From Candidatus Omnitrophota bacterium (GTDB lineage Bacteria; Omnitrophota; Gorgyraeia; Zapsychrales; Zapsychraceae), in assembly GCA_016931055.1 (NCBI GenBank), contig JAFGFL010000089.1, forward strand, positions 7,257-71,256: a stretch of DNA of 64,000 nucleotides, read 5' to 3'. The translations under genes were made by a program, and so were the position numbers. Shown here piece after piece: positions 32,798 to 63,897 of this stretch; position 1 is the stretch's first letter; every line of letters begins with the position of its first letter. The notes under the pieces are model-generated. The model was not told the DNA's origin. It made no database searches and saw only the letters and a list, made by a program, of their open reading frames with translations.

Positions 32798-32880
32798 CAT
32801 GACACAAGACACAAGACACAAGACACAAGAAACGAATGAGGCAGCCCTGCGTCCCGTGTCCTGCGTCTTGTGTCTTTGTG
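32798..32880. repeat. heptad-periodic inverted repeat: (GACACAA)x4, 14-nt spacer, then about 4 complementary heptads
   Basis: GACACAAGACACAAGACACAAGACACAAGAAACG ... CGTCCCGTGTCCTGCGTCTTGTGTCTTTGTG. It starts 4 nt after the ftsW stop and ends 14 nt before the murG ATG. Confidence 0.85.
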
Positions 32881-42772: not shown

Positions 42773-45700
42773 ATGGTTTTTAAACGGATATTTGTTTCTC
42801 TTATAATATATACGCTCTCTGCATGTGCTGTCACAGTTGGTGCAGAGGATCCCGCTGTCAATGAGGAAAAGGTGGCTGCTTCTGCAGCTCTTCCAAGTAT
42901 GAAACTATCCCTTTCGAGCGGCCATGAAAAGGCCGTCCAGTTTGCACGGTCTCAAGACATGGCTTCCGCTTACGAATACATTCAGCAGGCCTACCAAAAC
43001 GACCCTGAAAAGACTGAAGTTATTGCGGACTATATCGCTATTTCAACCTGGATGGAGCACTTTGATGAGGCGGTAACTTTGTATCATAAACACAAGGAAT
43101 CAGGACTTCCTGATTACGCCGTTAAGGAAGCGATCAAGTCGTTGCGCGAGGTCGGCAATTATGAGGAATCGATCCGGTTATCAGAAAGTTATTTAGAATC
43201 GCACGGTAAAGATTTGGATGTCGCCATTGGGCTGATCTATTCTCTGATTCAGACTAAAGATTATGAGAAAGCGTCCCAACAGTTGTCCATTTTTGTAGGA
43301 ATATTTCCTGATGCCCTGCGTCTAAAAAGTCTTCAAACCCTGCTTTTTGCCTCACAAAAACAATGGGATAAGTTTTTTGATCCGATCGAAGGGGTCAGGC
43401 CATTGATCATTGATGGTCAGGATCCGGCGGTATTAAGCGACCTTAACGAAGGATTTTATCTGGTTTATGACGAGGCCATCGCGTTCGCCCGCAATGGCCG
43501 GTTTGGTGAGGCATTGGGCCTTTTGGACCAACTCGAAGTCTTTAAGCACAAATCCCAGCAAGTCGAAATGGACCGCATTGTGATCATGGCCTGGCAGGAA
43601 AAATTCGGCGAAGCGGTGGACGCCTACCGGCAGATGGATATCCAGAAAGACCCGCCGCCGTATTTCTTAAAAGAAGTCGCGCGCGCCTACAAGAAAAACG
43701 GGCAGGAAATAATCCTTTCGGACAAGCACTGGCAGTATATCACTCCTTATCTTCAGGCAATCGAGGAAGAGGAGTATCAAGCCCGGTTGCAGTTAGCCTT
43801 TATCCGATCCCATATAGAGGAAGGGAACATGGCAGAGGCCTTAAGGCTGATTGATGATATTCCCGGAGATGACCCTATAAAGCAGGAAGCTCTGTTCATT
43901 AAGGCCGAGATCTATGATGCGGCCGGGGAATACTGGAAAGCGGTACAGGTATTCAATCATATCCTCAATATTGAACCGGATAATGATAAGGCGATTAATT
44001 TGAAGCTGAGAAGTTTAATGGACCTCGGCGCTACAAGCTTGGTCCTTGAGGAAAGTGATAAGCATCCTGATATTGTTGACCCTGTTGTTCTTGAGCGGGC
44101 GCGGACCGATGTCCCGATGCACCGGATACAGTGGGAAGAATCGAAGCCGGCACTGGAGGAGATCCGGGAGCTTGAAGAAAAATATGCGCGCCTCTTTGCG
44201 GAAGACCGTGGTGATGAAACAGTTTCGGAGAATGATCAGCGGATCAAATGGGACCGGCTCCTTGCTCTGCGCAAAGAGGACAAGATGGACGAGGTTATTG
44301 CGGAATATGAGACTCTCCTGGAAAAAGGCGCTGACATCCCGCCATGGGTCTGCCGCGCGGCCGCTGACGCGTATCTTTATTTGCAAAAACCCGAGGAAGC
44401 CCTGGCTATCTATGATGAATTGCTCAAGACGGACCAGTCATTTGACGTTCAGATGTCGCAGTATTACACATTCGTGGAATTGGGGCGCTACAAGGATGCC
44501 CAAGCGGTCTTGGACCGGCTGGACGCGATTACGCCTGCGAAGATTATCAGACGCGGTATTTTACAGGACAATTGGGAGAAAGCGGACATTGTGTTTAACA
44601 GGGCCTGGCTGCTTTTGTACCAGGACCGTCTGAAGGATGCAGAAGAATATATTCAAAAGGTCAATAAGGTTTCTCCGTTCAATACGAATCTGCGGACAGC
44701 CGAGGCGCATACTCATTTATACCGCGGCTGGAAGAGAAAGGCTTTGGAAGACTTCAAAATGATCCGGACCCTGGATGACCGCGATTTCGCTTCCCATGTC
44801 GGTTACGCCCGGGCGCTCAATGACAACATGCAAAAAAAGCAAGCACGCGAGGAGATAAATCATATCTTAGATAAGAAACCTACCCATAAACATGCGCAGC
44901 GCTTGAAACGGGCATTTGATGTTGAGGAAATGGCGCAGGTTACGTTTGGCGCCAATTACAAAACAGAGGACCCCGGGGAAGACGAATATACCCTTTCCTT
45001 GCGCGGGGAAAAATCTGTTGATTTCCACCACACCCTGTTCGCCGAATTGATCCGCCGGGAGACAACGCAAGAAGGGGACAATGATGTCGCGCGCAAGATC
45101 CGTGTCGGCGACATCTGGCAGATCAATAACAACTGGCGGCTTGTGGGGGCCGTCACGGGGGATTATGAAAAATCCGATGACGTGGGCTTCTTGGGAGAGA
45201 TCCGCTATCAGCCGGACGATTACTGGACGTTCGATTTCGGATATGAATCTGACACCTTGGATATTGCTTCGCGGTCACGAAAAAATGGCGTTGAGGCCGA
45301 CCTGTACACTTTATCCGCGACCTATCGGATGAGCGAATTGTTTGATACGACGCTGGGCGTTACCTTCAAGGATTTTACGGATAATAACGAATACCTGGAT
45401 TATTTCTGGCGGACCGACACGGCGCTGACCACATCGGCGTATTGGAAGACGCGTTTGCAAACGGAATTCAGCTATGAAACATTCTCGGACCAGGATGTCG
45501 ATTATTTCAGCCCGGAAGAGACCACCTCGTTCTATCTCGTTCCCATCGTCGAACACACGTGGTTCCGACGTTATGAAAAGGCTTGGGTGGACCGTCTCTA
45601 TTTAGGGATCGGGCAGAAATGGCAGAAGGATTTCGGGACCAGCGACGCCGGATACATCCGCTATGAGCAGGACCACCAATTCTCGGATACGAAAAGCTGG

Positions 45701-45790
45701 CTGATCGGGACAACGTACAGCCTTAACGAATATGACGGGGAAGGCGTCAACTCGCTGAATGTGTATACGACACTGCGGTTCAAGTTTTAA
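42773..45790 (+). CDS. pgaA: poly-beta-1,6-N-acetyl-D-glucosamine export porin (TPR + C-terminal beta-barrel)
   Basis: Signal peptide, about 700 aa of TPR-like helical repeats, and a C-terminal region of alternating beta-strand pattern ending ...TLRFKF (OMP terminal Phe). First gene of the pgaABCD order. Confidence 0.8.
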   Translation: MVFKRIFVSLIIYTLSACAVTVGAEDPAVNEEKVAASAALPSMKLSLSSGHEKAVQFARSQDMASAYEYIQQAYQNDPEKTEVIADYIAISTWMEHFDEAVTLYHKHKESGLPDYAVKEAIKSLREVGNYEESIRLSESYLESHGKDLDVAIGLIYSLIQTKDYEKASQQLSIFVGIFPDALRLKSLQTLLFASQKQWDKFFDPIEGVRPLIIDGQDPAVLSDLNEGFYLVYDEAIAFARNGRFGEALGLLDQLEVFKHKSQQVEMDRIVIMAWQEKFGEAVDAYRQMDIQKDPPPYFLKEVARAYKKNGQEIILSDKHWQYITPYLQAIEEEEYQARLQLAFIRSHIEEGNMAEALRLIDDIPGDDPIKQEALFIKAEIYDAAGEYWKAVQVFNHILNIEPDNDKAINLKLRSLMDLGATSLVLEESDKHPDIVDPVVLERARTDVPMHRIQWEESKPALEEIRELEEKYARLFAEDRGDETVSENDQRIKWDRLLALRKEDKMDEVIAEYETLLEKGADIPPWVCRAAADAYLYLQKPEEALAIYDELLKTDQSFDVQMSQYYTFVELGRYKDAQAVLDRLDAITPAKIIRRGILQDNWEKADIVFNRAWLLLYQDRLKDAEEYIQKVNKVSPFNTNLRTAEAHTHLYRGWKRKALEDFKMIRTLDDRDFASHVGYARALNDNMQKKQAREEINHILDKKPTHKHAQRLKRAFDVEEMAQVTFGANYKTEDPGEDEYTLSLRGEKSVDFHHTLFAELIRRETTQEGDNDVARKIRVGDIWQINNNWRLVGAVTGDYEKSDDVGFLGEIRYQPDDYWTFDFGYESDTLDIASRSRKNGVEADLYTLSATYRMSELFDTTLGVTFKDFTDNNEYLDYFWRTDTALTTSAYWKTRLQTEFSYETFSDQDVDYFSPEETTSFYLVPIVEHTWFRRYEKAWVDRLYLGIGQKWQKDFGTSDAGYIRYEQDHQFSDTKSWLIGTTYSLNEYDGEGVNSLNVYTTLRFKF

Positions 45791-45810
45791 TTAAAATTGT
45801 CATTTTTGAA

Positions 45811-47769
45811 ATGCTAATGAGTATAATGATGAAAACAAACAACAAAATCCTGTTATTTATTCTCTCAATCGCGTTTTTCTCGTTCGCTTCGGTGCCGCTG
45901 CTTGCGGCCAATGAGGGGACGATCGTTTTGAGCTATCACGATGTCCCGAAAGAAGTGAATCTGGATGATTTTGGGGCCGATCAGCAGAGTTTTGTCAATA
46001 CCATCGAATATTTCAAGATGCACGGGTATACTTTCATCAGTCTCGACGAACTGGTCAAGTCCAAAAAAGGCGGCATCGTCCTGCCCGAGAAGACCATTTT
46101 GCTGACCTTTGATGACGCTTACGAAAGTTTTTACGAATTTGCTTATCCGCTTTTGGCCGAATACAAGATCCCGTGCACGCTGGCCGTTGTCTCAAGCTGG
46201 ATTGAGGGTGGAGACACGGAATATGTGAAACACTCGCTGATGAGCTGGGAGCAGATCCGGGAAGCGGCCAACAGCCCTTATGTCGAGGTCATCTCGCATT
46301 CGCATAATCTCCATAGGGGGGTTATTTATAATCCCCAAGGGAACAGTGCCCCGGCAGCCGTCAGCCGCCAGTATGATACGGATACTCAAACCTATGAAGA
46401 TGAAGCGGCGTATGTAAAGCGGATTTACGATGATCTAAAAACATCAAAAGAAATGCTGGAAGAAAAGACCGGGAAGATGGTCAGGGCTATTGCCTGGCCT
46501 TACGGCCTTTATAATGAAATAACCATCGAACAGGCGGCTAAACTCGGCCTTGAGGTGCAGTTCACCTTAAACGACAAGATCGTAGCGCCGAACCGTTTCG
46601 GGCAGATCAGCCGTTTTCTTATTCATAAAAATCCTACCGTTCTTGACCTGCTTAAGGATTTAAAACTTGTTCCCAACGGCTATTCGCAAGAGCGGATTGT
46701 GCAGGCTGATCTGGATATGATTTATGACCCTGACCCTGATCAGACTGAACGGAATTTAAGCGCCTTTTTAGACAGGGTCAAAGACATGAGAGTAACGTCG
46801 GTCTATTTACAGGCCTTTTGCGATATCGAAGGGACAGGAAATATCCGGGAAGTGTATTTTCCTAACCGCGTCTTGCCGGTGAAGCAGGATCTCTTCAGCC
46901 GCGTCGCGCACCAGTTAAAAAGCCGGGCAAATGTCAATGTCTATGCCTGGATGCCGATGTTAAGCATTGAGCTTCCGGAGGATGCTGCCCGTGACGGTCT
47001 TTATGTCCGCGAATTCAATGAGGGCGAAAGCAAGGTCAGCACCTCATGGTACAAACGCTTAAGCCCCTTCAGCCCGGCAACGGAAGAAATCCTGACAAAG
47101 CTTTATGAGGACCTGGCGGTCCATGCCAATATGGACGGCATCGTATTTTTGGATGACGGCTATTTGAACGAGGAGGAGGATTTCCACCCTGATGCCGTGG
47201 CGGAATATGAAATAGTTGTCGGCGATGAGAAATTGGCCGCGCCACTTGGAGCCAGTATCAGCGAACGGAAAGCATGGACGGAATCGAAAACCAAGAAACT
47301 CAACGAATTAAGCGAGCACCTTTTAAAGGCCGTTGCCCGTTACCGTCCTGAGATCAAATCGGCCAGGACGCTTTATGCCCCGGTTGTCCTTGATGATTCG
47401 ACCATGGAGCGGTTCTCCCAAAGTTACGAAGAAAGCCTCGCCTTATACGATTACGTGGTCATCATGGCCTATCCGTACCTTGAAGAGGTCAAGGCCCCTA
47501 AGAAATGGCTGGCAAAACTCGTTGCTGTTGCCAAAACGCAGCCCGAGGGCATTGAAAAAACGGTTTTTAAGATACAAACCTTTGATTGGAAGAAAAAGGG
47601 ATGGATTGACAGCAAGATCCTTGATCAGTGGTTAAGAACGCTTGTGTCCGCCGGAGCGAGGCACTTGGCATACTATCCGGATGATTATGTTTTGGATTAT
47701 CCAGAGAAGGGCATCATCCGGGCAATGATGTCCGTCGAAGATTTTCCTTCTGAGAGGGACTGGAAATGA
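45811..47769 (+). CDS. pgaB: poly-beta-1,6-N-acetyl-D-glucosamine N-deacetylase
   Basis: Signal peptide, CE4 deacetylase motifs (LTFDDAY, HSHNLH) and a long C-terminal PgaB-type glycoside-hydrolase-like domain. Confidence 0.85.
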   Translation: MLMSIMMKTNNKILLFILSIAFFSFASVPLLAANEGTIVLSYHDVPKEVNLDDFGADQQSFVNTIEYFKMHGYTFISLDELVKSKKGGIVLPEKTILLTFDDAYESFYEFAYPLLAEYKIPCTLAVVSSWIEGGDTEYVKHSLMSWEQIREAANSPYVEVISHSHNLHRGVIYNPQGNSAPAAVSRQYDTDTQTYEDEAAYVKRIYDDLKTSKEMLEEKTGKMVRAIAWPYGLYNEITIEQAAKLGLEVQFTLNDKIVAPNRFGQISRFLIHKNPTVLDLLKDLKLVPNGYSQERIVQADLDMIYDPDPDQTERNLSAFLDRVKDMRVTSVYLQAFCDIEGTGNIREVYFPNRVLPVKQDLFSRVAHQLKSRANVNVYAWMPMLSIELPEDAARDGLYVREFNEGESKVSTSWYKRLSPFSPATEEILTKLYEDLAVHANMDGIVFLDDGYLNEEEDFHPDAVAEYEIVVGDEKLAAPLGASISERKAWTESKTKKLNELSEHLLKAVARYRPEIKSARTLYAPVVLDDSTMERFSQSYEESLALYDYVVIMAYPYLEEVKAPKKWLAKLVAVAKTQPEGIEKTVFKIQTFDWKKKGWIDSKILDQWLRTLVSAGARHLAYYPDDYVLDYPEKGIIRAMMSVEDFPSERDWK

Positions 47770-48989
47770 TGCAGTTGATTTACAGTTTTGTGTTCCATTA
47801 TCCGCTGTTCATGGCGTTTGTCCTGATGACGGGCGGGTTCTGCTATCATTTCTTCCGGGAGCGCAAGAGCTATCCCGACGTATTGCCGGAAGAGCCGCTC
47901 GTGTCCATTCTTGTGCCGTGCCATAACGAGGAAGAGTGCATCATCCAGACCATCCAGTATTTGGAGAAACAGGAATACAAGAATATCGAAATCATCGCGA
48001 TCAATGACGCATCAACGGACAAGACGCTGGACATCCTCAAGGAAATGCAGAAGACCATGCCCCAATTGCGCGTTGTCAACATGACAACGAACCAGGGCAA
48101 GGGCATGGGCCTGACGATGGGGGCGATGGCGGCCAACGGGGAATATCTCGTGTGTATCGATGCCGACGCGCTATTGGACGCGAAGGCGATCAAATACTTC
48201 ATGTGGCATTTCCTGAATTTCCCGAGGGTCGGGGCCGTTACGGGGAATCCGCGAGTCCGCAACCGGACCAGCATCCTGGGGAAGATCCAGGTCGGGGAGT
48301 TTTCGGCCATCGTCGGCATGATCAAGCGGACACAGCGGATCATCGGGAAGATCTACACCGTTTCCGGCGTGGTCGCGGCGTTCCGCAAGTCGGCCTTGAT
48401 GTCGGTGGGCTTCTGGAGCAATGACATGGTCACGGAAGATATCGACATCAGCTGGAAGCTGCAGCTGAAGTTCTGGGACATCCGCTATGAGCCGCGCGCG
48501 TTATGCTGGATCCTGATGCCGGAGACGCTCAGGGGGCTTTGGCGCCAGAGGCTGCGCTGGGCGCAGGGCGGCAATGAGGTCTTAAGAAAATACGGAAGGT
48601 CGATGCTGGATTGGACGCAAAGGCGCATCTGGCCGATCTATATCGAATATGTTGTCAGTGTCTTGTGGGCCTACTTGTTTTCGCTGACCGTGGTGGTCTA
48701 CATACTGGACAAGATCATCGATCTGCCGCCGGGCATTGAAGTCCGGACAATCGTGCCGGGATGGACAGGCGTTATCCTGGCGGTTGTCTGCCTGTGCCAG
48801 GTCATGATCGGGCTTTTGATTGACAGCAAGTTCGAGAAGGGGATCATCAAGATGTTTTTCTGGCTGATCTGGTATCCGTGTATCTATTGGATTTTAAACG
48901 CGTCGGTGGCCATCATCGGCCTGCCGAAAGCCTTGTTAAAGAAGAAGGGGACTCCGGCAATCTGGGAGAGCCCGGACCGGGGATTTTAA
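47766..48989 (+). CDS. pgaC: poly-beta-1,6-N-acetyl-D-glucosamine synthase (GT2)
   Basis: SILVPCHNEE, AINDASTD, CIDADA, VTEDID, QRLRWAQG (QxxRW); TM helices at both ends. Confidence 0.92.
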   Translation: MMQLIYSFVFHYPLFMAFVLMTGGFCYHFFRERKSYPDVLPEEPLVSILVPCHNEEECIIQTIQYLEKQEYKNIEIIAINDASTDKTLDILKEMQKTMPQLRVVNMTTNQGKGMGLTMGAMAANGEYLVCIDADALLDAKAIKYFMWHFLNFPRVGAVTGNPRVRNRTSILGKIQVGEFSAIVGMIKRTQRIIGKIYTVSGVVAAFRKSALMSVGFWSNDMVTEDIDISWKLQLKFWDIRYEPRALCWILMPETLRGLWRQRLRWAQGGNEVLRKYGRSMLDWTQRRIWPIYIEYVVSVLWAYLFSLTVVVYILDKIIDLPPGIEVRTIVPGWTGVILAVVCLCQVMIGLLIDSKFEKGIIKMFFWLIWYPCIYWILNASVAIIGLPKALLKKKGTPAIWESPDRGF

Positions 48990-49027
48990 CCAACTCCGTC
49001 ATGACAAGACGGGATAATAGGAGTTGC

Positions 49028-49549
49028 ATGATGGATAAATGGGAAAAGGAAATAAGGAAAAAGCGTAAGAGGGAATCGCTGATCATTAACCGGCCGGAGG
49101 TCTTGAAGAAGACACGCCGAAGGATCGAATTCAGCCTGACGACGATTGGATGGGCCGTGTGGATCTTCCTCTGCCGTCCGCTTTTGATCATCCTCCTGTG
49201 GTTTTTGAGCTTCCGAGTGTTCTTCAGACACATGGTGGACCTCGGCGGATTTGTCGGGCTGCAGCAACTGAAGATCTATTATGTCTCGGTCATTATTGTT
49301 ATCATTTTCTTGGTCCGGGGCTGGAACTTGTATAATAAGGTACGTTACGGCAAGAAGACCCGCCGCAAGTTTGTCCGCGGCGTTTCCGATGAAAGGTTGG
49401 AAAAATGCTTCAAACTGCCGCAAGGCAGCGCTCACCAATTGCAGGGCATGAAAAGATTCGATGTTGACTTCTTTGATGGCCATCAGATCCGGATCAGGCT
49501 TCCCGGAAAACCCCAGAGTTTGATTGACGGTTATTTTAAGCCTTCCTAA
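49028..49549 (+). CDS. pgaD: PgaD-like small inner-membrane subunit of PNAG synthase
   Basis: Two TM helices after a basic N-terminus, in the position directly after pgaC. AGGAG precedes ATG 49028; the ORF is open from 48878. The call rests mainly on context. Confidence 0.55.
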   Translation: MMDKWEKEIRKKRKRESLIINRPEVLKKTRRRIEFSLTTIGWAVWIFLCRPLLIILLWFLSFRVFFRHMVDLGGFVGLQQLKIYYVSVIIVIIFLVRGWNLYNKVRYGKKTRRKFVRGVSDERLEKCFKLPQGSAHQLQGMKRFDVDFFDGHQIRIRLPGKPQSLIDGYFKPS

Positions 49550-53461: not shown

Positions 53462-53548
53462 CGGAGAGGCCGGGATTCGAACCCGAGGGCCCGTTACCAG
53501 GCCAACTGCTTAGCAGGCAGTTGCGTTCAGCCACTCCGCCACCTCTCC
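53462..53548 (-). tRNA. tRNA-Ser (anticodon GCT), long variable arm
   Basis: Minus strand GGAGAGGTGGCGGAGTGGCTGAACGCAACTGCCTGCTAAGCAGTTGGCCTGGTAACGGGCCCTCGGGTTCGAATCCCGGCCTCTCCG; anticodon loop CTGCTAA. Confidence 0.93.
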
Positions 53549-54718: not shown

Positions 54719-54747
54719 TTGTTATTCTTCCTTTCGTGTTTTATACT
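54719..54747 (+). promoter_or_regulatory. sigma70-like promoter upstream of the GEMM-like element
   Basis: TTGTTA (54719-54724), 17-nt spacer, TATACT (54742-54747). Confidence 0.4.
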
Positions 54748-54802
54748 TATGGTAGACCCCGTAAAAGTCGGGTTAACTGAGTATTGCGGGGTAGACAATA
54801 GA

Positions 54803-54970
54803 GATTGACGAAAAGGGCAAACTCATCGTAAGGTGGGGACCCCTACGTCGCTCAAATATTTTCATGTTTGAGCTTCGCAGGGCCCTGCGAAGCTCCCAAA
54901 CGTAAGTTTTGGAGCGAAGCAGGGGCAAAGCTACAGGGTCCTGGAAAACAGGATAGCCAGTTGCCGAATC
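54803..54970 (+). promoter_or_regulatory. c-di-GMP-I (GEMM-I)-like riboswitch aptamer, interrupted by an 84-nt insertion
   Basis: 5' half: GAUUGACG-AAAAGGGCAAAC-UCAUC-GUAA-GGUGG-GGAC (to 54840). 3' half: GCAAAGCUA-CAGGG-UCCUG-GAAAA-CAGGA-UAGC-CAGUUGCCGAAUC (from 54925). Both resemble the V. cholerae Vc2 aptamer as recalled, and joined they restore GGGACGCAAAGC. Confidence 0.55.
54841..54924 (+). repeat. 84-nt structured insertion (MITE/REP-like) with imperfect 12-nt terminal inverted repeats
   Basis: The ends CCCTACGTCGCT / AGCGAAGCAGGG pair at 10/12. Inside are GCTCAAA..TTTGAGC, a perfect 26-nt palindrome GAGCTTCGCAGGGCCCTGCGAAGCTC (54870-54895), a GTAA-capped hairpin CCAAAC/GTTTTGG, and GGAGCGAAGC. 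Confidence 0.6.
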
Positions 54971-54985
54971 AATAAATAAGGCAGT

Positions 54986-55019
54986 GCCTATCCAGAATGA
55001 TTTCAGGATAGGCTTTTTT
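54986..55019 (+). terminator. intrinsic terminator (candidate expression platform of the GEMM-like element)
   Basis: GCCTATCC-agaatgatttca-GGATAGGC followed by T6. Confidence 0.7.
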
Positions 55020-55024
55020 AATGA

Positions 55025-55065
55025 GCACGTACTTTATGGAGCGAAGCGAACATAAAGTACTGTGC
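55025..55065. repeat. palindromic element of the ACTTATG/GGAGCGAAGCGAA family
   Basis: GCACGTACTTTATG-GAGCGAAGCGAA-CATAAAGTAC-t-GTGC (14-bp stem with one bulge). Confidence 0.7.
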
Positions 55066-55157
55066 GAATTAATCCCGATCCGCCAAGAGTTTTGGCGGAG
55101 AGGGATCTCAGATCCCTCGTCACCAAAGTTCGTAAGAGGGTGACGCGGGATCAATTC
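55066..55157 (+). ncRNA. candidate structured RNA: compact four-way junction
   Basis: Closing helix GAATTAATCCCG/CGGGATCAATTC (11/12) enclosing three 7-bp hairpins: CCGCCAA/TTGGCGG, AGGGATC/GATCCCT and CGTCACC/GGTGACG, with 0-2 nt linkers. Confidence 0.35.
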
Positions 55158-55162
55158 CGGCA

Positions 55163-55202
55163 GCAACTTATGTTCACTCACTTTGTTCGTTCCATAAGTT
55201 GC
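55163..55202. repeat. palindromic element of the ACTTATG/CATAAGT family
   Basis: GCAACTTATG-(20 nt)-CATAAGTTGC, a perfect 10-bp stem. The loop on the minus strand reads GAACGAACAAAGTGAGTGAA. Confidence 0.65.
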
Positions 55203-55303
55203 GCCGTCATTGAAAATAAACAATATTCTTTTTTATTAGGACTAGTAAATCAAGTATAATAACTAACTATAAAGCAATTGTTATATAACCCTAAAGGGTT
55301 CAT

Positions 55304-55789
55304 ATGAATAAGATATCCCGAAACTCTATTGGATTTACCCTGGTGGAACTCCTGTTGGCAGTTCTGATCCTGGGATTTACTCTTGTCGGACTTTTACAAG
55401 TTTTTATCCGATGTTCCGTTTTCGCGGAAATAGCGCAAAGCAAATCGGCTGTCATGAGCTTGCTGCAAGGAAGGATGGAGGATATCCGGCAACGCGACTA
55501 TGCGGATATTGTCGCCCTTTATGACGCGACGGCCAGCGGAGATCCGGCCGAAACGTTTGACCTTGACCCATTGACTGGGAAGGCCGCTGTTTATATTACC
55601 CAGTTTAATGCGGGTGATGACAATCTGATGCAAATTAAGATCGTCGGCAGTTGGAAAGCTCAGCAGGATCGCATTATGGGAGAAGATCTTGATCTGGATG
55701 GGGTGGAGGATACGGGCGAAGACGTGGATGGCGATGGGGACTTTTCATCGATGGCGATGGTGATCAGTTGTATTGCTGCCAGATATTAG
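55304..55789 (+). CDS. prepilin-type N-terminal cleavage/methylation domain protein (type IV pilin / T2SS pseudopilin-like)
   Basis: IGFTLVELLLAVLILG (G|FTLVE class III signal) and an acidic C-terminal GEDLDLDGVEDTGEDVDGDGD stretch. Confidence 0.8.
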   Translation: MNKISRNSIGFTLVELLLAVLILGFTLVGLLQVFIRCSVFAEIAQSKSAVMSLLQGRMEDIRQRDYADIVALYDATASGDPAETFDLDPLTGKAAVYITQFNAGDDNLMQIKIVGSWKAQQDRIMGEDLDLDGVEDTGEDVDGDGDFSSMAMVISCIAARY

Positions 55790-55802
55790 AGGCGGGACGA
55801 TT

Positions 55803-56369
55803 ATGATGAACGTTAAGTATTATCACAGGAAAAAACCCGGGTTGTTCGGATCTCTTGAAGGGTACACTCTTATAGAAGTTCTGGTCACAGTCACAATTTT
55901 TGCCGTTCTTGCCGGGGCGATCAACATGGTCTTGCTCGTGGGAGAATCCTCCTGGCAAACAAACAGCGTCCGCATTGAGCTGCGCCAGGAACTCCGCAAG
56001 GCGATCAACAAAATGGAAGACGAATTAAGACAAACATCCCCAGTTGCTATAACAGCCGGCCCGACAGTCGCGAATGGTTCAACATCGGCATCGATAACAT
56101 TTTATTTGCCGACTGGCGTTTCCGGAAATTCGATTACCTGGAGCGCGAACACAACACAATATAAATTAGGGGGGACCGATTCCAATCAGCTCCAACGGAT
56201 CGAAGGGGGAAATACTGAAGTCATCGCACAGAATATCCAGTCGTTGACATTTTCCCGCGCTGCGGCAACACCTGATATCATTGATGTGTCTCTCGTAGCC
56301 CAGAAAGATACCATCAAAGGCATTCCGCTTACGGTCAATTTTGCTTTTGGAGTCCAGATGAGGAATTAA
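55803..56369 (+). CDS. prepilin-type N-terminal cleavage/methylation domain protein (minor pilin-like)
   Basis: EGYTLIEVLVTVTIFAVLAG motif. The ORF is open from 55773, overlapping the upstream pilin. Confidence 0.75.
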   Translation: MMNVKYYHRKKPGLFGSLEGYTLIEVLVTVTIFAVLAGAINMVLLVGESSWQTNSVRIELRQELRKAINKMEDELRQTSPVAITAGPTVANGSTSASITFYLPTGVSGNSITWSANTTQYKLGGTDSNQLQRIEGGNTEVIAQNIQSLTFSRAAATPDIIDVSLVAQKDTIKGIPLTVNFAFGVQMRN

Positions 56370-56371
56370 TA

Positions 56372-57976
56372 ATGAACAATGATCATGGAAAAAAAGGCTT
56401 GGCGCGATTAACGGAAGAAAAGGGGAGCGTGCTTTTAACGACCTTCTTGCTGATCACGGTCTTGCTGATCCTCGGCGCGGCATTTGTGGTGGCAACCATG
56501 AACGAAAACAGGATCGCGGAAGCGAATAGAAGATATACACAGGCTTTTAATATTGCCGAGGCCGGCATAGAGCGGATGATCTATTATCTTAAGGAAGATT
56601 TTGCTGTCGATAAAGATTGGTCGGACGGTGAGGTCGATGGATGGACATATGATTCGACAGATGTGGACGCGAATAATTATTTTCCGTTTCCGGATGTGTC
56701 TGATGCGGCTAATGCGGCCTACCCGCCATCAACGCTCGGGGATGGTTCTTATGCGATCAGCTTAAAGAGCAGCGCGGATGATGAAATTTGGATCCGTTCT
56801 GTTGGGACGATCGGCAGCATAAGGCAGACGATTGAAGTTTTTGTGCGGGTGATTGCTCTTTCCCCATGGGACAACGCCATTTTCGGGGGAGCAGGTTCGT
56901 CCGGAGCCATGGTAAACGGGAACGTCAAGATCATGGGTTCAGTTCACATATTAGGCAACGGTCTTGCGGATGGTGATAATGCCATTGATCTTGGCGGGAC
57001 AGCGGAACTTGTCGGTAATAATTATGATGGATTAGAGGCTGATCTGGATGACAGGGTTCCGGAACTTGACACGGTTTTGTTTAATGGTGAAAATGTGGAG
57101 ACTTTGAATGCGGAACTTCGCGTCAAAAAAGGACTGGTGGGTTTGAGCGGTACTTCGAAGGTTGGGAATGCTGATGCTTCCGGTGATGGCGATAAAGAAA
57201 CGGTTGACGGAACATATGTCACGGATGGTTATAATGGGACAGCAGGTACAACCAATGTATTTTCGGACAACGGAAGTTCGGAAGGCTATGACTTGGGCGA
57301 TGCTGTCACTTTCCCAAGTCTCAATGACTCTATTTCTGGCTATGACGATTATTATGCTTATTTTTCGGCGGAAGGCTATACGCTTGCCGCAGGTGAACTG
57401 GCAACAGTGGCTGCGTTGTCGGGTGCCACACCGAATTTTACGTATGGAAACTGCGCGACGAATTGCATATCCATGACGGGCGGCAAATTGTATGTCAAAG
57501 GAAAAGTGTATGTTAACGGTGGAACCTTGGGGATAACAGGGAGCACAGTTGAATATACGGGTAGCGGCACAATTTTAGTGTCTGGCGATGTCACTATTAA
57601 TGAGGACTTAATTACGGCAACAGATTTAGATCCAGTCAGCGGCAATCAATATGAGAATTATCCCGTTCATGAAGTTACAGGACAGAAGAATGTCTTGGCC
57701 ATTATGACGCCCAGTGATATTGAAATGGGGACCGGCGCGGGAGCAGCCCAATTGGATGTTATGGGATTGTTCTTTGCCGAAGGGGAGATCAAAACAGCCA
57801 AGCAAACCGATGTGATGGGGTCATTAGTCACGAACTATTTCAACGTCTCGAATCAAGTGCCGAGTGTCTGGCAGGTTCCCGATACATCGGATAATCTTCC
57901 TGATGGACTGATCACCGGCGATGAGATCTATTTGATGAGAGTGATTTCCTGGCGGAAAATCGATAATCCGACTTAG
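56372..57976 (+). CDS. PilX-N-domain pilus-associated protein, large (534 aa)
   Basis: N-terminus GSVLLTTFLLITVLLILGAAFVVATMNENRIAEANRRYTQAFNIAEAG resembles the PilX N-terminal domain. The remainder is a Gly/Asp/Asn-rich, probably beta-helical region. Confidence 0.6.
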   Translation: MNNDHGKKGLARLTEEKGSVLLTTFLLITVLLILGAAFVVATMNENRIAEANRRYTQAFNIAEAGIERMIYYLKEDFAVDKDWSDGEVDGWTYDSTDVDANNYFPFPDVSDAANAAYPPSTLGDGSYAISLKSSADDEIWIRSVGTIGSIRQTIEVFVRVIALSPWDNAIFGGAGSSGAMVNGNVKIMGSVHILGNGLADGDNAIDLGGTAELVGNNYDGLEADLDDRVPELDTVLFNGENVETLNAELRVKKGLVGLSGTSKVGNADASGDGDKETVDGTYVTDGYNGTAGTTNVFSDNGSSEGYDLGDAVTFPSLNDSISGYDDYYAYFSAEGYTLAAGELATVAALSGATPNFTYGNCATNCISMTGGKLYVKGKVYVNGGTLGITGSTVEYTGSGTILVSGDVTINEDLITATDLDPVSGNQYENYPVHEVTGQKNVLAIMTPSDIEMGTGAGAAQLDVMGLFFAEGEIKTAKQTDVMGSLVTNYFNVSNQVPSVWQVPDTSDNLPDGLITGDEIYLMRVISWRKIDNPT

Positions 57977-63664: not shown

Positions 63665-63736
63665 ACTTACGGAGCGCCAAAGGCGCGAACGTAAGTCTGT
63701 AGATGTAGTCGCCCCCGGAGCGAAGCGGAGGGGGTG
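63663..63736. repeat. two adjacent palindromes of the GGAGCG...GAA family
   Basis: AGACTTACG-GA-GCGCC-AAA-GGCGC-GAA-CGTAAGTCT (63663-63698) and CGCCCCC-GGAGCGAAGCGGA-GGGGGTG (63710-63736); the first overlaps the dnaX stop codon. Confidence 0.7.
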
Positions 63737-63737
63737 A

Positions 63738-63897
63738 TGAGTAAATGGTTAATGGTGAATAGTAAATAGTGTTATTAGCAGAGTGGGTTTATGGACGACT
63801 GAGATTGCTTGATATTCAATTCACCATTAACTGTTTAAGATTAAGAATATAATTTCTAATAACCCAGACCATTCACCATTAACTATTTACTATTGAC
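63738..63897. repeat. heptad-periodic inverted repeat (TAAATGG/TTAATGG/TGAATAG units), with a third internal copy of a 13-mer
   Basis: The left arm TAAATGGTTAATGGTGAATAG (63742-63762) pairs with CCATTCACCATTAACTATTTA (63869-63889) at 19/21. ATTCACCATTAAC also occurs at 63820-63832. Confidence 0.75.

Follow-up and report, generated by a model that had tools for sequence, protein, structure and literature searches.

Can the ligand-binding core of a class I cyclic di-GMP (c-di-GMP-I, or GEMM-I) riboswitch be opened by inserted helices and continue to function? The question is raised by a leader within a 64,000-nucleotide (nt) stretch of the genome of a Candidatus Omnitrophota bacterium (contig JAFGFL010000089.1, positions 7,257 to 71,256; the whole stretch is referred to here as the window), in which two segments resembling the halves of a c-di-GMP aptamer lie apart upstream of a pilus-like operon. 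The original prediction for this locus allowed two readings, a riboswitch inactivated by a small palindromic mobile element or an aptamer that tolerates an extra helical domain. The comparative data presented below favour the tolerated domain over inactivation: the leader is probably a functional, transcription-terminating c-di-GMP-I riboswitch of the pilus-like operon that accommodates a lineage-specific two-hairpin module in its P2 helix.

Two halves of a GEMM-I aptamer

Sequence and coordinates are as originally described, and the halves are separated by exactly 84 nt. With positions named after their equivalents in the Vibrio cholerae Vc2 aptamer, the elements are as follows.

54803-54840, plus strand: aptamer 5' half, GAUUGACGAAAAGGGCAAAC-UCAUC-GUAA-GGUGG-GGAC, from the Rfam alignment; 54810-54840 reads GAAAAGGGCAAAC-UCAUC-GUAA-GGUGG-GGAC
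54803-54806 and 54809-54810, plus strand: P1 5' strand, GAUU and CG
54816, plus strand: J1/2, with the G20 equivalent
54817-54818, plus strand: G21 and C22, bases of the P2 base pairs
54819-54821, plus strand: A23-A25
54822-54837, plus strand: P2 distal hairpin, CUCAUC-GUAA-GGUGGG, with the GUAA loop at 54828-54831
54838-54840, plus strand: G42, A43 and C44 (C44 is C54840)
54841-54924, plus strand: insert, 84 nt between C44 and G45
54925-54970, plus strand: aptamer 3' half, GCAAAG-CUACAGGGUCCUGGAAAACAGGAUAGCCAG-UUGCCGAAUC, from the Rfam alignment and from covariation in P3 and P1
54925-54926, plus strand: G45 and C46
54927-54929, plus strand: J2/3, A47-A49
54929-54962, plus strand: P3, with the bulged AG at 54955-54956 (54956 is the G83 equivalent)
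54964, plus strand: C92 equivalent
54965-54966 and 54967-54970, plus strand: P1 3' strand, CG and AAUC

The conserved positions of GEMM-I aptamers are G20, C22, A23, A25, G32, A35, G42, C44, G45, A47-A49, G83 and C92 (PMC3764141), and the window keeps every one of them; the Vc2 positions given in the original prediction were right. Among these are the pocket bases G54816, A54927-A54929 and C54964, all invariant across the orthologs described below, of which the first and last are the G20 and C92 equivalents that had been pointed out. P2 carries its GNRA loop, and the A, G, C and C columns at the bulged-AG and C44 positions are likewise invariant in the ortholog alignment. Since G20, A47 and C92 are the standard bases, c-di-GMP is the expected ligand. 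The cyclic GMP-AMP (cGAMP) class of GEMM-I has an A at position 20; a cGAMP-type or GGC-type variant was rejected because G20 and A47 are standard in the window. The feature of GEMM-I that the RNA lacks is a contiguous P2, the 3' strand of which (P2 is also called P1b) is broken by 84 nt between C44 and G45, rather than in J2/3 where the original prediction had placed the insert.

A search of the region as it stands gave no riboswitch match at the Rfam gathering thresholds but, in E-value mode, a full-length sub-threshold match to RF03167 (model positions 1-80 of 80) at 27.7 bits, with E 2e-4 in 601 nt and E 0.022 over the whole window. RF03167 is in the clan of the GEMM-I family RF01051, the gathering scores being 59 bits for RF03167 and 35 bits for RF01051. 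The window scores below threshold because the insert is bridged only by a local end, with 97 nt skipped in the alignment. Any RF01051 match is hidden by clan competition, so that the RF01051 score of the window is at most 27.7 bits, and the emergence of RF03167 as top model is a by-product of competition among models of one clan. The same E-value scan found no second GEMM-like match elsewhere in the window, and over the insert and leader the other Rfam families gave chance-level matches alone (CRISPR repeat, microRNA precursors and similar).

Sequence, structure, covariation, synteny with threshold-passing members and context together identify 54803-54840 and 54925-54970 as halves of one class I c-di-GMP (GEMM-I) aptamer. 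The full-length clan-model match and the ortholog comparison thus uphold the proposal of an aptamer split between GGAC and GCAAAG by a self-pairing insert. We also observed that 54906-54930 (GAGCGAAGCAGGGGCAAAGC), comprising the 3' strand of the second insert hairpin and J2/3, resembles the aptamer 5' region at 54808-54822 (UGACGAAAAGGGCAAAC). It is because of this likeness that Rfam aligned AGG-GGCAAAGC instead of the true GGAC, and that the 5' strand of the insert can pair with the aptamer 5' region; it could hint at an origin of the insert by partial duplication.

Inserts at two sites in orthologous leaders

Leaders were collected from exact-sequence contigs of pseudopilin homologs, which gave ten distinct leaders beyond that of the window, 11 in total. 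All ten share its gene order (MORN-like gene, leader, two pseudopilins, PilX-like gene, Tex), with protein identities to the window of 42-75%, and the aptamer is present in 11/11 syntenic leaders. Inserts occupy two places in P2. Site B is the bond between C44 and G45; site A lies on the opposite (5') strand of the same P2 internal loop, between C26 (of GGCAAAC) and the GNRA hairpin.

L016: site B none; site A none
Window: site B 84 nt; site A none
L005: site B 88 nt; site A none
L006: site B 83 nt; site A none
L020 (identical to L021): site B 83 nt; site A none
L018: site B 50 nt; site A none
L019: site B 53 nt; site A none
L002 and L011: site B none; site A 42 nt, two hairpins
L015: site B 1 nt (U); site A 42 nt, two hairpins
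L014: site B 138 nt; site A 42 nt, two hairpins

Site-B inserts of 50-138 nt occur in seven of the 11 orthologs, six of which, the window included, have site B alone filled (50-88 nt); three have inserts at site A only, one (L014) at both sites and one (L016) at neither. The two hairpins of the site-A insert are similar to each other and show compensatory changes, with 96% pairing against 32-46% in slid controls. In the predicted folds, either insert turns the P2 internal loop into a multi-helix junction.

The uninterrupted ortholog that the original prediction had suggested looking for is L016, whose core reads GGCAAAC-UCAUC-GAAA-GGUGG-GGAC-GCAAAGC and scores 58.3 bits (E 5e-12). It served as a natural stand-in for the insert-deleted window, which without its insert differs from L016 at about 4/51 positions from P1 to J2/3. 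The RF01051 gathering score is passed by L015 (40.7 bits) and L011 (39.6 bits) as well. A more distant homolog with a different upstream gene (L055, 39% identity) has a 130-nt leader without the aptamer. Scans with an alignment of the upstream gene yielded nothing beyond the L006 contig and one contig that ends short of the aptamer, and in viral contigs there was no match to the core of the second insert hairpin (alpha, below), the P2 motif matching only an unrelated phage gene family.

Selection on the interrupted core

With inserts removed, the eleven cores align nearly without gaps outside the P3 loop. Pairing is kept in 93.9% of the P1, P2 and P3 pair cells of this alignment, whereas slid controls give 20-44%. 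In seven pairs, located in P1 and P3, both sides have changed (in P1, for example, U-A of the window is C-G in L006). The P1 helix, originally put forward as a possibility, is borne out by these compensatory changes. Invariant in the alignment are G21-C46, C22-G45, G20, A47-A49, C44, the bulged AG with its G83 equivalent, and C92. A 25-mer of the 5' half (GGCAAACUCAUCGUAAGGUGGGGAC) is identical in L005 and L018.

This conservation contrasts with the state of neutral sites. Between most lineages the adjacent gene is saturated with changes at its four-fold degenerate sites, where identity is 27.7-45% (27.7% for L006 against L021). Saturation at these sites combined with retention of the aptamer halves argues for purifying selection, and the reading of a dead riboswitch is disfavoured because unconstrained sequence would have been randomised over such divergence. 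That the split aptamer is still under selection, as its conservation suggests, is the main argument against inactivation.

Architecture and inversion of the insert

The insert, which consists of two hairpins, is the longest inverted repeat of the 64-kb window (arms of 43 nt, 77% complementarity).

54841-54882, plus strand: insert hairpin 1, 'beta', CCCUACGUCGCUCAAAUAUUUUCAUGUUUGAGCUUCGCAGGG, predicted both when the insert is folded by itself at minimum energy and when the aptamer fold is enforced
54883-54924, plus strand: insert hairpin 2, 'alpha', CCCUGCGAAGCUCCCAAACGUAAGUUUUGGAGCGAAGCAGGG, with a GUAA loop and a symmetric GAA/GAA internal loop in the predicted fold

The ends of the insert do pair as first noted (CCCUACGUCGCU with AGCGAAGCAGGG, 10/12), but this is not the preferred fold: tandem hairpins are predicted at -44.8 kcal/mol, against -39.2 kcal/mol for a single hairpin with the ends paired. 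A single long hairpin was accordingly dropped as the conserved fold of the insert, being the weaker fold in the window and one that the inserts of L006, L019, L005 and L018 cannot form, whereas all seven site-B inserts, folded alone, form tandem hairpins from first to last base at minimum energy.

Beta has homologs in L020 and L014 and, in reverse-complement form, in L006. When alpha of the window is compared with that of L020 and with L006 hairpin 1 in reverse complement, 33/42 positions are invariant, and the stem pairs that differ do so by compensatory changes (3/3); in L014 the outer stem of alpha is kept and extra branches have grown within it. L005 and L018 have a different hairpin pair in common, UACUUGAAU...AUUCAAGUA followed by CGG...CCG, and the insert of L019 is a third kind of sequence. 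We further noted three exact occurrences of the 10-mer GGAGCGAAGC in the window (at 54911, 55038 and 63717), each of them in an intergenic hairpin, where by our own estimate about 0.1 would be expected for a random 10-mer.

The L006 insert is the reverse complement of that of L020: 68/83 positions are identical without gaps in this orientation, against 64.5% forward with gaps, and L006 hairpin 1 matches the reverse complement of L020 alpha at 40/42 positions, with the aptamer flanks in the same orientation in both. The order of the module is beta-alpha in the window, L020 and L014, and reverse-alpha then reverse-beta in L006. The event could be an in-place inversion between terminal inverted repeats, or insertion in the opposite orientation. 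Between L006 and L020 the module is 82% and the aptamer core 85% conserved despite saturated neutral sites; being as conserved as the core at such divergence, the module is either constrained or recently exchanged.

The insert thus has hallmarks of a mobile element in its inverted hairpin doublet, its terminal inverted repeats and its occurrence in either orientation. Dispersed copies are lacking, no further copy of any site-A or site-B insert being found in the 64-kb window or the ortholog loci searched, which speaks against a mobile family of high copy number. The GGAC and GCAAAG boundaries show no direct repeat (target-site duplication), and no transposase was noticed nearby, although no systematic search was made. 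An invertible DNA switch (inverton) was rejected since independent contigs of the same organisms show one orientation (L001, equal to the window; L006 to L009 alike), in a small sample of contigs.

Folding of the interrupted RNA and its expression platform

In the original motif, P2 is a hairpin of highly conserved two-pair and six-pair stems around a small internal loop (PMC1950547). P2 and P3 are held alongside each other by a Watson-Crick pair between C44 and the bulged G83 of P3, and the Vc2 mutation G83C abolishes binding (PMC11705072); A49 makes an A-minor contact to G45, the pairing partner of C22 (PMC3764141). The folding cost of the insert was estimated by enforcing the top pairs of P1, the base pairs of P2 and the GNRA hairpin, with the remainder left free. 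The enforced aptamer fold lies 2.6-10.5 kcal/mol above minimum energy with the inserts and 1.3-6.7 kcal/mol above it without them, so that the additional cost due to the insert is predicted at about 1-4 kcal/mol; c-di-GMP binding to Vc2 has been measured at about -9 kcal/mol (PMC11705072). In the enforced folds the inserts form two local hairpins. Each of these would be self-closed with its own ends adjacent, and for that reason C44 and G45 would stay close. The P2 internal loop would become a predicted four-way junction of the two-pair P2 base, the GNRA hairpin, beta and alpha, in which the G20/A47/C92 pocket, the C22-G45 pair and the C44-G83 contact should still be able to form.

The aptamer occupies a 5' regulatory position and is accompanied by a promoter-like site, a terminator, a predicted competing antiterminator and a pseudopilin operon.

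54719-54747, plus strand: putative promoter, TTGTTA-17-TATACT, from a consensus scan, directly 3' of the stop codon of the upstream gene
54756-54792, plus strand: additional hairpin of the 5' leader, ACCCCG...CGGGGU, 3' of the promoter-like site and 5' of the aptamer
54980-54993, plus strand: putative antiterminator segment GGCAGUGCCUAUCC, able to pair with the P3 and P1 3' strands (54951-54965) and overlapping the terminator 5' arm
54986-55013, plus strand, with UUUUUU at 55014-55019: intrinsic terminator GCCUAUCC...GGAUAGGC, predicted hairpin -14.9 kcal/mol
55020-55216, plus strand: second structured region, a nest of inverted repeats of about 200 nt bounded by AAUGAG...CAUUGAAAA
55304-57976, plus strand: presumed controlled operon, with pseudopilins at 55304-55789 and 55773-56369 (N-terminal methylation motifs) and a PilX_N protein at 56372-57976, from Pfam

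The promoter-like site, at which a block TATTTGTTATTC...TGTTTTACACTT recurs in the same place in the orthologous leaders, would set the start of transcription about 50 nt upstream of the aptamer. The 54756-54792 hairpin is variable and found in the window and L002 only, in no other leader. Terminator hairpin and U run are present in 11/11 orthologs, 15-40 nt 3' of the aptamer; a simple terminator scan had missed 54986-55019 because the stem is interrupted. In a transcript that ends before the terminator 3' arm, pairing of GGCAGUGCCUAUCC with 54951-54965 is the minimum-energy fold, at -17.4 kcal/mol. These pairings suggest how the switch might operate. Without ligand, the 3' strands of P3 and P1 would pair with the antiterminator segment, occupying the 5' arm of the terminator and allowing read-through; with c-di-GMP bound, P1 and P3 would be locked, the terminator would form and transcription would stop. 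The predicted device would be an OFF switch.

Two further observations concern the region 3' of the terminator. The structured region at 55020-55216 has homologs in L016, L020, L005 and L011, while L015 has a minimal form and L002 and L006 lack it; like the aptamer inserts, it differs between orthologs in length by whole hairpins. Between the terminator and the pseudopilin start, at about 55221-55262, a promoter-like block ATATTCTCTTTTATC...N...GGTATAAT is strongly conserved in all orthologous leaders; a simple promoter scan of the window did not flag it.

Alternative explanations

A number of these results weigh against a working riboswitch with a tolerated module. The insert lies directly 3' of C44, beside the pocket, and with the C44-G83 pair essential in Vc2, tolerance is not a given. 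When the window RNA is folded without constraints, CCCU and CGUC of the insert 5' strand pair with AGGG and GACG of the aptamer, and on such models the insert could compete with correct aptamer folding and promote misfolding. At 27.7 bits the window stays under every gathering threshold of Rfam. The OFF direction rests on predicted pairings, and in several orthologs, where the competing pairing involves only the P1 3' strand, this direction is less clear. Should the block at about 55221-55262 be a promoter, riboswitch control would be limited to read-through from the upstream one and may thus extend to only part of operon transcription. Lastly, the inversion in L006 is, to judge from its sequence, a DNA-level event with the dynamics typical of palindromic elements; in the L006 RNA the GNRA loop of alpha becomes UUUC, and a sequence-specific RNA role of the module is disfavoured because L006 carries it reverse-complemented.

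Were the riboswitch dead, a palindromic element would have inactivated the core, the halves would be decaying and the operon would be under other elements only. The sub-threshold match, an insertion point adjoining an essential contact, the promoter-like block 3' of the terminator and the failure of P1 to form in the predicted minimum-energy fold would all suit such a state. Yet seven lineages with saturated synonymous sites still carry an insert-bearing aptamer. The halves of these aptamers share 70-88% identity, show compensatory changes in P1 and P3 and have invariant pocket bases, the terminator is kept in all insert-bearing orthologs, and the uninterrupted aptamer of L016 is no better conserved than the interrupted ones. 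We consider inactivation very improbable. A different view grants that the riboswitch works but takes the insert to be, or to have begun as, a mobile palindrome at tolerant positions, akin to REPINs or to miniature inverted-repeat transposable elements (MITEs), and without an RNA function of its own. This would account for a module built from two hairpin units in mutually inverted orientation, like repetitive extragenic palindromic (REP) doublets, for exact presence/absence boundaries among orthologs with unrelated sequence families at the same bond, for the reverse-complemented module of L006 relative to L020, and for differences by whole hairpin blocks within the closest pair (L014 and L021); the threefold occurrence of GGAGCGAAGC in the window, always in intergenic hairpins where about 0.1 is expected by our estimate, points the same way. 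It sits less well with the lack of a second insert copy in the window or the ortholog loci searched, the lack of a target-site duplication, and a neighbourhood in which, short of a systematic search, no transposase was noticed. Occurrence of the same module at the same bond in saturated lineages, at 82% conservation against 85% for the core, fits vertical inheritance under constraint. A mobile origin of this kind is, in our judgement, unlikely.

The module might instead have a regulatory role of its own, as a tertiary brace that stands in for a missing GAAA tetraloop-receptor contact, a site for RNase III or a protein, a built-in competitor for the 5' strand of the aptamer, or an orientation-independent DNA site. 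Two-hairpin modules in this loop are found in 10/11 orthologs, and L016, alone in having none, is also alone in having a GAAA loop and a long P3; the very strong conservation of alpha extends to its GNRA loop and GAA/GAA internal loop, and the insert 5' strand is complementary to GACG...AGGG of the aptamer. The L006 inversion, however, destroys the GNRA loop and the G-A pairs in the RNA while the aptamer is intact, different sequence families (that of L005 and L018, and that of L019) occupy the same site, and the link between GAAA loop and missing insert comes from one sequence, so that such a role seems rather doubtful. If the module is not passive, these RNAs could form a four-way-junction c-di-GMP-I subclass in Omnitrophota in which the tetraloop-receptor contact is replaced by alpha, serving as a tertiary brace or as a contact for a protein or RNase, and/or the module could be a site-specific homing or invertible DNA cassette that targets the GGAC/GCAAAG junction and alters riboswitch behaviour; we regard this as a tentative and fairly unlikely extension. 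We prefer a functional riboswitch in which the module is most probably an expansion element that the aptamer tolerates and that perhaps stabilises it. As the ortholog sequences indicate, the module has evidently been gained, lost, enlarged and, at the DNA level, even inverted while the sensor was kept.

Gene neighbourhood and other observations

The first pseudopilin (55304-55789) is identical to a protein that NCBI assigns to a metagenome-assembled Candidatus Omnitrophica genome. The Tex gene lies downstream of the PilX_N gene. Upstream of the leader is a gene for a 283-aa (amino acid) protein that has no Pfam match in the window; its orthologs have a faint MORN_2 match, and we refer to it as MORN-like. 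Further upstream lie a tRNA, two TPR proteins and, a few kb away, a pgaABCD-like polysaccharide operon (42773-49549: PgaA barrel plus TPR, deacetylase plus GHL13, family 2 glycosyltransferase, PgaD). PgaC- and PgaD-like genes are found upstream in L006 and L007 too. Such a surface and biofilm gene neighbourhood suits c-di-GMP control. The tRNA has a long variable arm and lies upstream of the MORN-like gene in the window (53462-53548, minus strand), L005 (855-941) and L006 (966-1052); the strand opposite these tRNAs, and L002 4-55, gave a below-threshold match to a plastid psbI-rps4 3' UTR (untranslated region) family that is apparently spurious.

Hairpins recur elsewhere in these intergenic regions. 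One type, consisting of a stem, GA, a short G+C hairpin, GAA and the closing stem, occurs in the window at 55027-55060, 63666-63699 and 63706-63732 and in the post-terminator regions of L016, L020 and L005; an example is GUACUUUAUG-GA-GCGAAGC-GAA-CAUAAAGUAC, for which L020 shows a compensatory change of G-C to A-U (GA-ACGAAGU-GAA). A K-turn reading of this motif was dropped, the loop being too short. At 63740-63897, after a gene resembling that of DNA polymerase III tau/gamma, there are A+T-rich long intergenic inverted repeats (AGTAAATGGTTAATGGTGAATAGT and ACCATTCACCATTAACTATTTACT, 92% complementary), and at 32801-32876, at the boundary of two open reading frames, a run of AAGACAC heptamers faces an imperfect inverted copy (GTGTCCTGCGTCTTGTGTC). 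A long hairpin between the PilX-like gene and Tex in L005 (5145-5299), with spurious sub-threshold Rfam matches (RT-14, microRNA precursors), is another sign of long intergenic hairpins accumulating in these genomes.

Comparison with known systems and significance

The RNA shares with GEMM-I (RF01051, clan CL00126, typified by Vc2) the three-helix junction of P1, P2 and P3 and the motifs GGCAAAC...GGAC and GCAAAGC. As in Vc2, a GNRA loop caps a six-pair P2 hairpin of equal length, and equivalents of G20, A47, C92, C22-G45, C44 and the bulged G83 are present; a terminator-based expression platform (here predicted) and an association with surface and motility genes are further points in common. 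It departs from GEMM-I in that P2 of the window is opened between C44 and G45 by 84 nt forming two hairpins, and that its relatives open P2 on the other strand, or on both. The RNA therefore lacks the contiguous P2 hairpin of GEMM-I and fails the curated score for that reason alone. The c-di-GMP-I-GGC family (RF03167), which scored best for the window, and the 3'3'-cGAMP-binding GEMM-Ib RNAs of Geobacter have the same fold, but those variants are defined by pocket substitutions, and the RF03167 consensus has GCGAA where the window has GCAAA.

With REP doublets (REPINs, BIMEs) the insert shares a size of about 84 nt, the doublet of inverted hairpins, a non-coding nature, and gain, loss and inversion with exact boundaries. 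It differs from them in having no other copies in the DNA searched, in standing at the same bond of a conserved RNA core in diverged lineages and in having no associated transposase, at least none noticed without a systematic search. In the variable peripheral helices of other riboswitch classes and the expansion segments of rRNA, helices sprout from a conserved core and function is kept. Unlike these, the module of the window sprouts from the backbone between C44, which makes an essential tertiary pair, and the ligand-adjacent C22-G45 pair. We found no relevant literature on GEMM-I RNAs with inserted helices or on Omnitrophota riboswitches, which is absence of evidence only, since most subscription journals lay outside the coverage.

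The finding, which should be of moderate to good interest to RNA specialists, indicates that the most conserved part of a well-studied aptamer can open by 50-138 nt without evolutionary loss of the sensor. It bears on how the pocket is constructed and offers two natural insertion sites for engineered reporters or scaffolds, and the natural series of leaders with no insert, site A only, site B only, both, or an inverted insert is suited to the study of how helices are gained, lost and reshuffled in structured RNAs. There is also a concrete warning about annotation thresholds: the riboswitch of the window and most orthologs with site-B inserts are invisible at the curated Rfam thresholds, and because split forms are missed in this way, the c-di-GMP regulons of poorly studied phyla may be under-counted.

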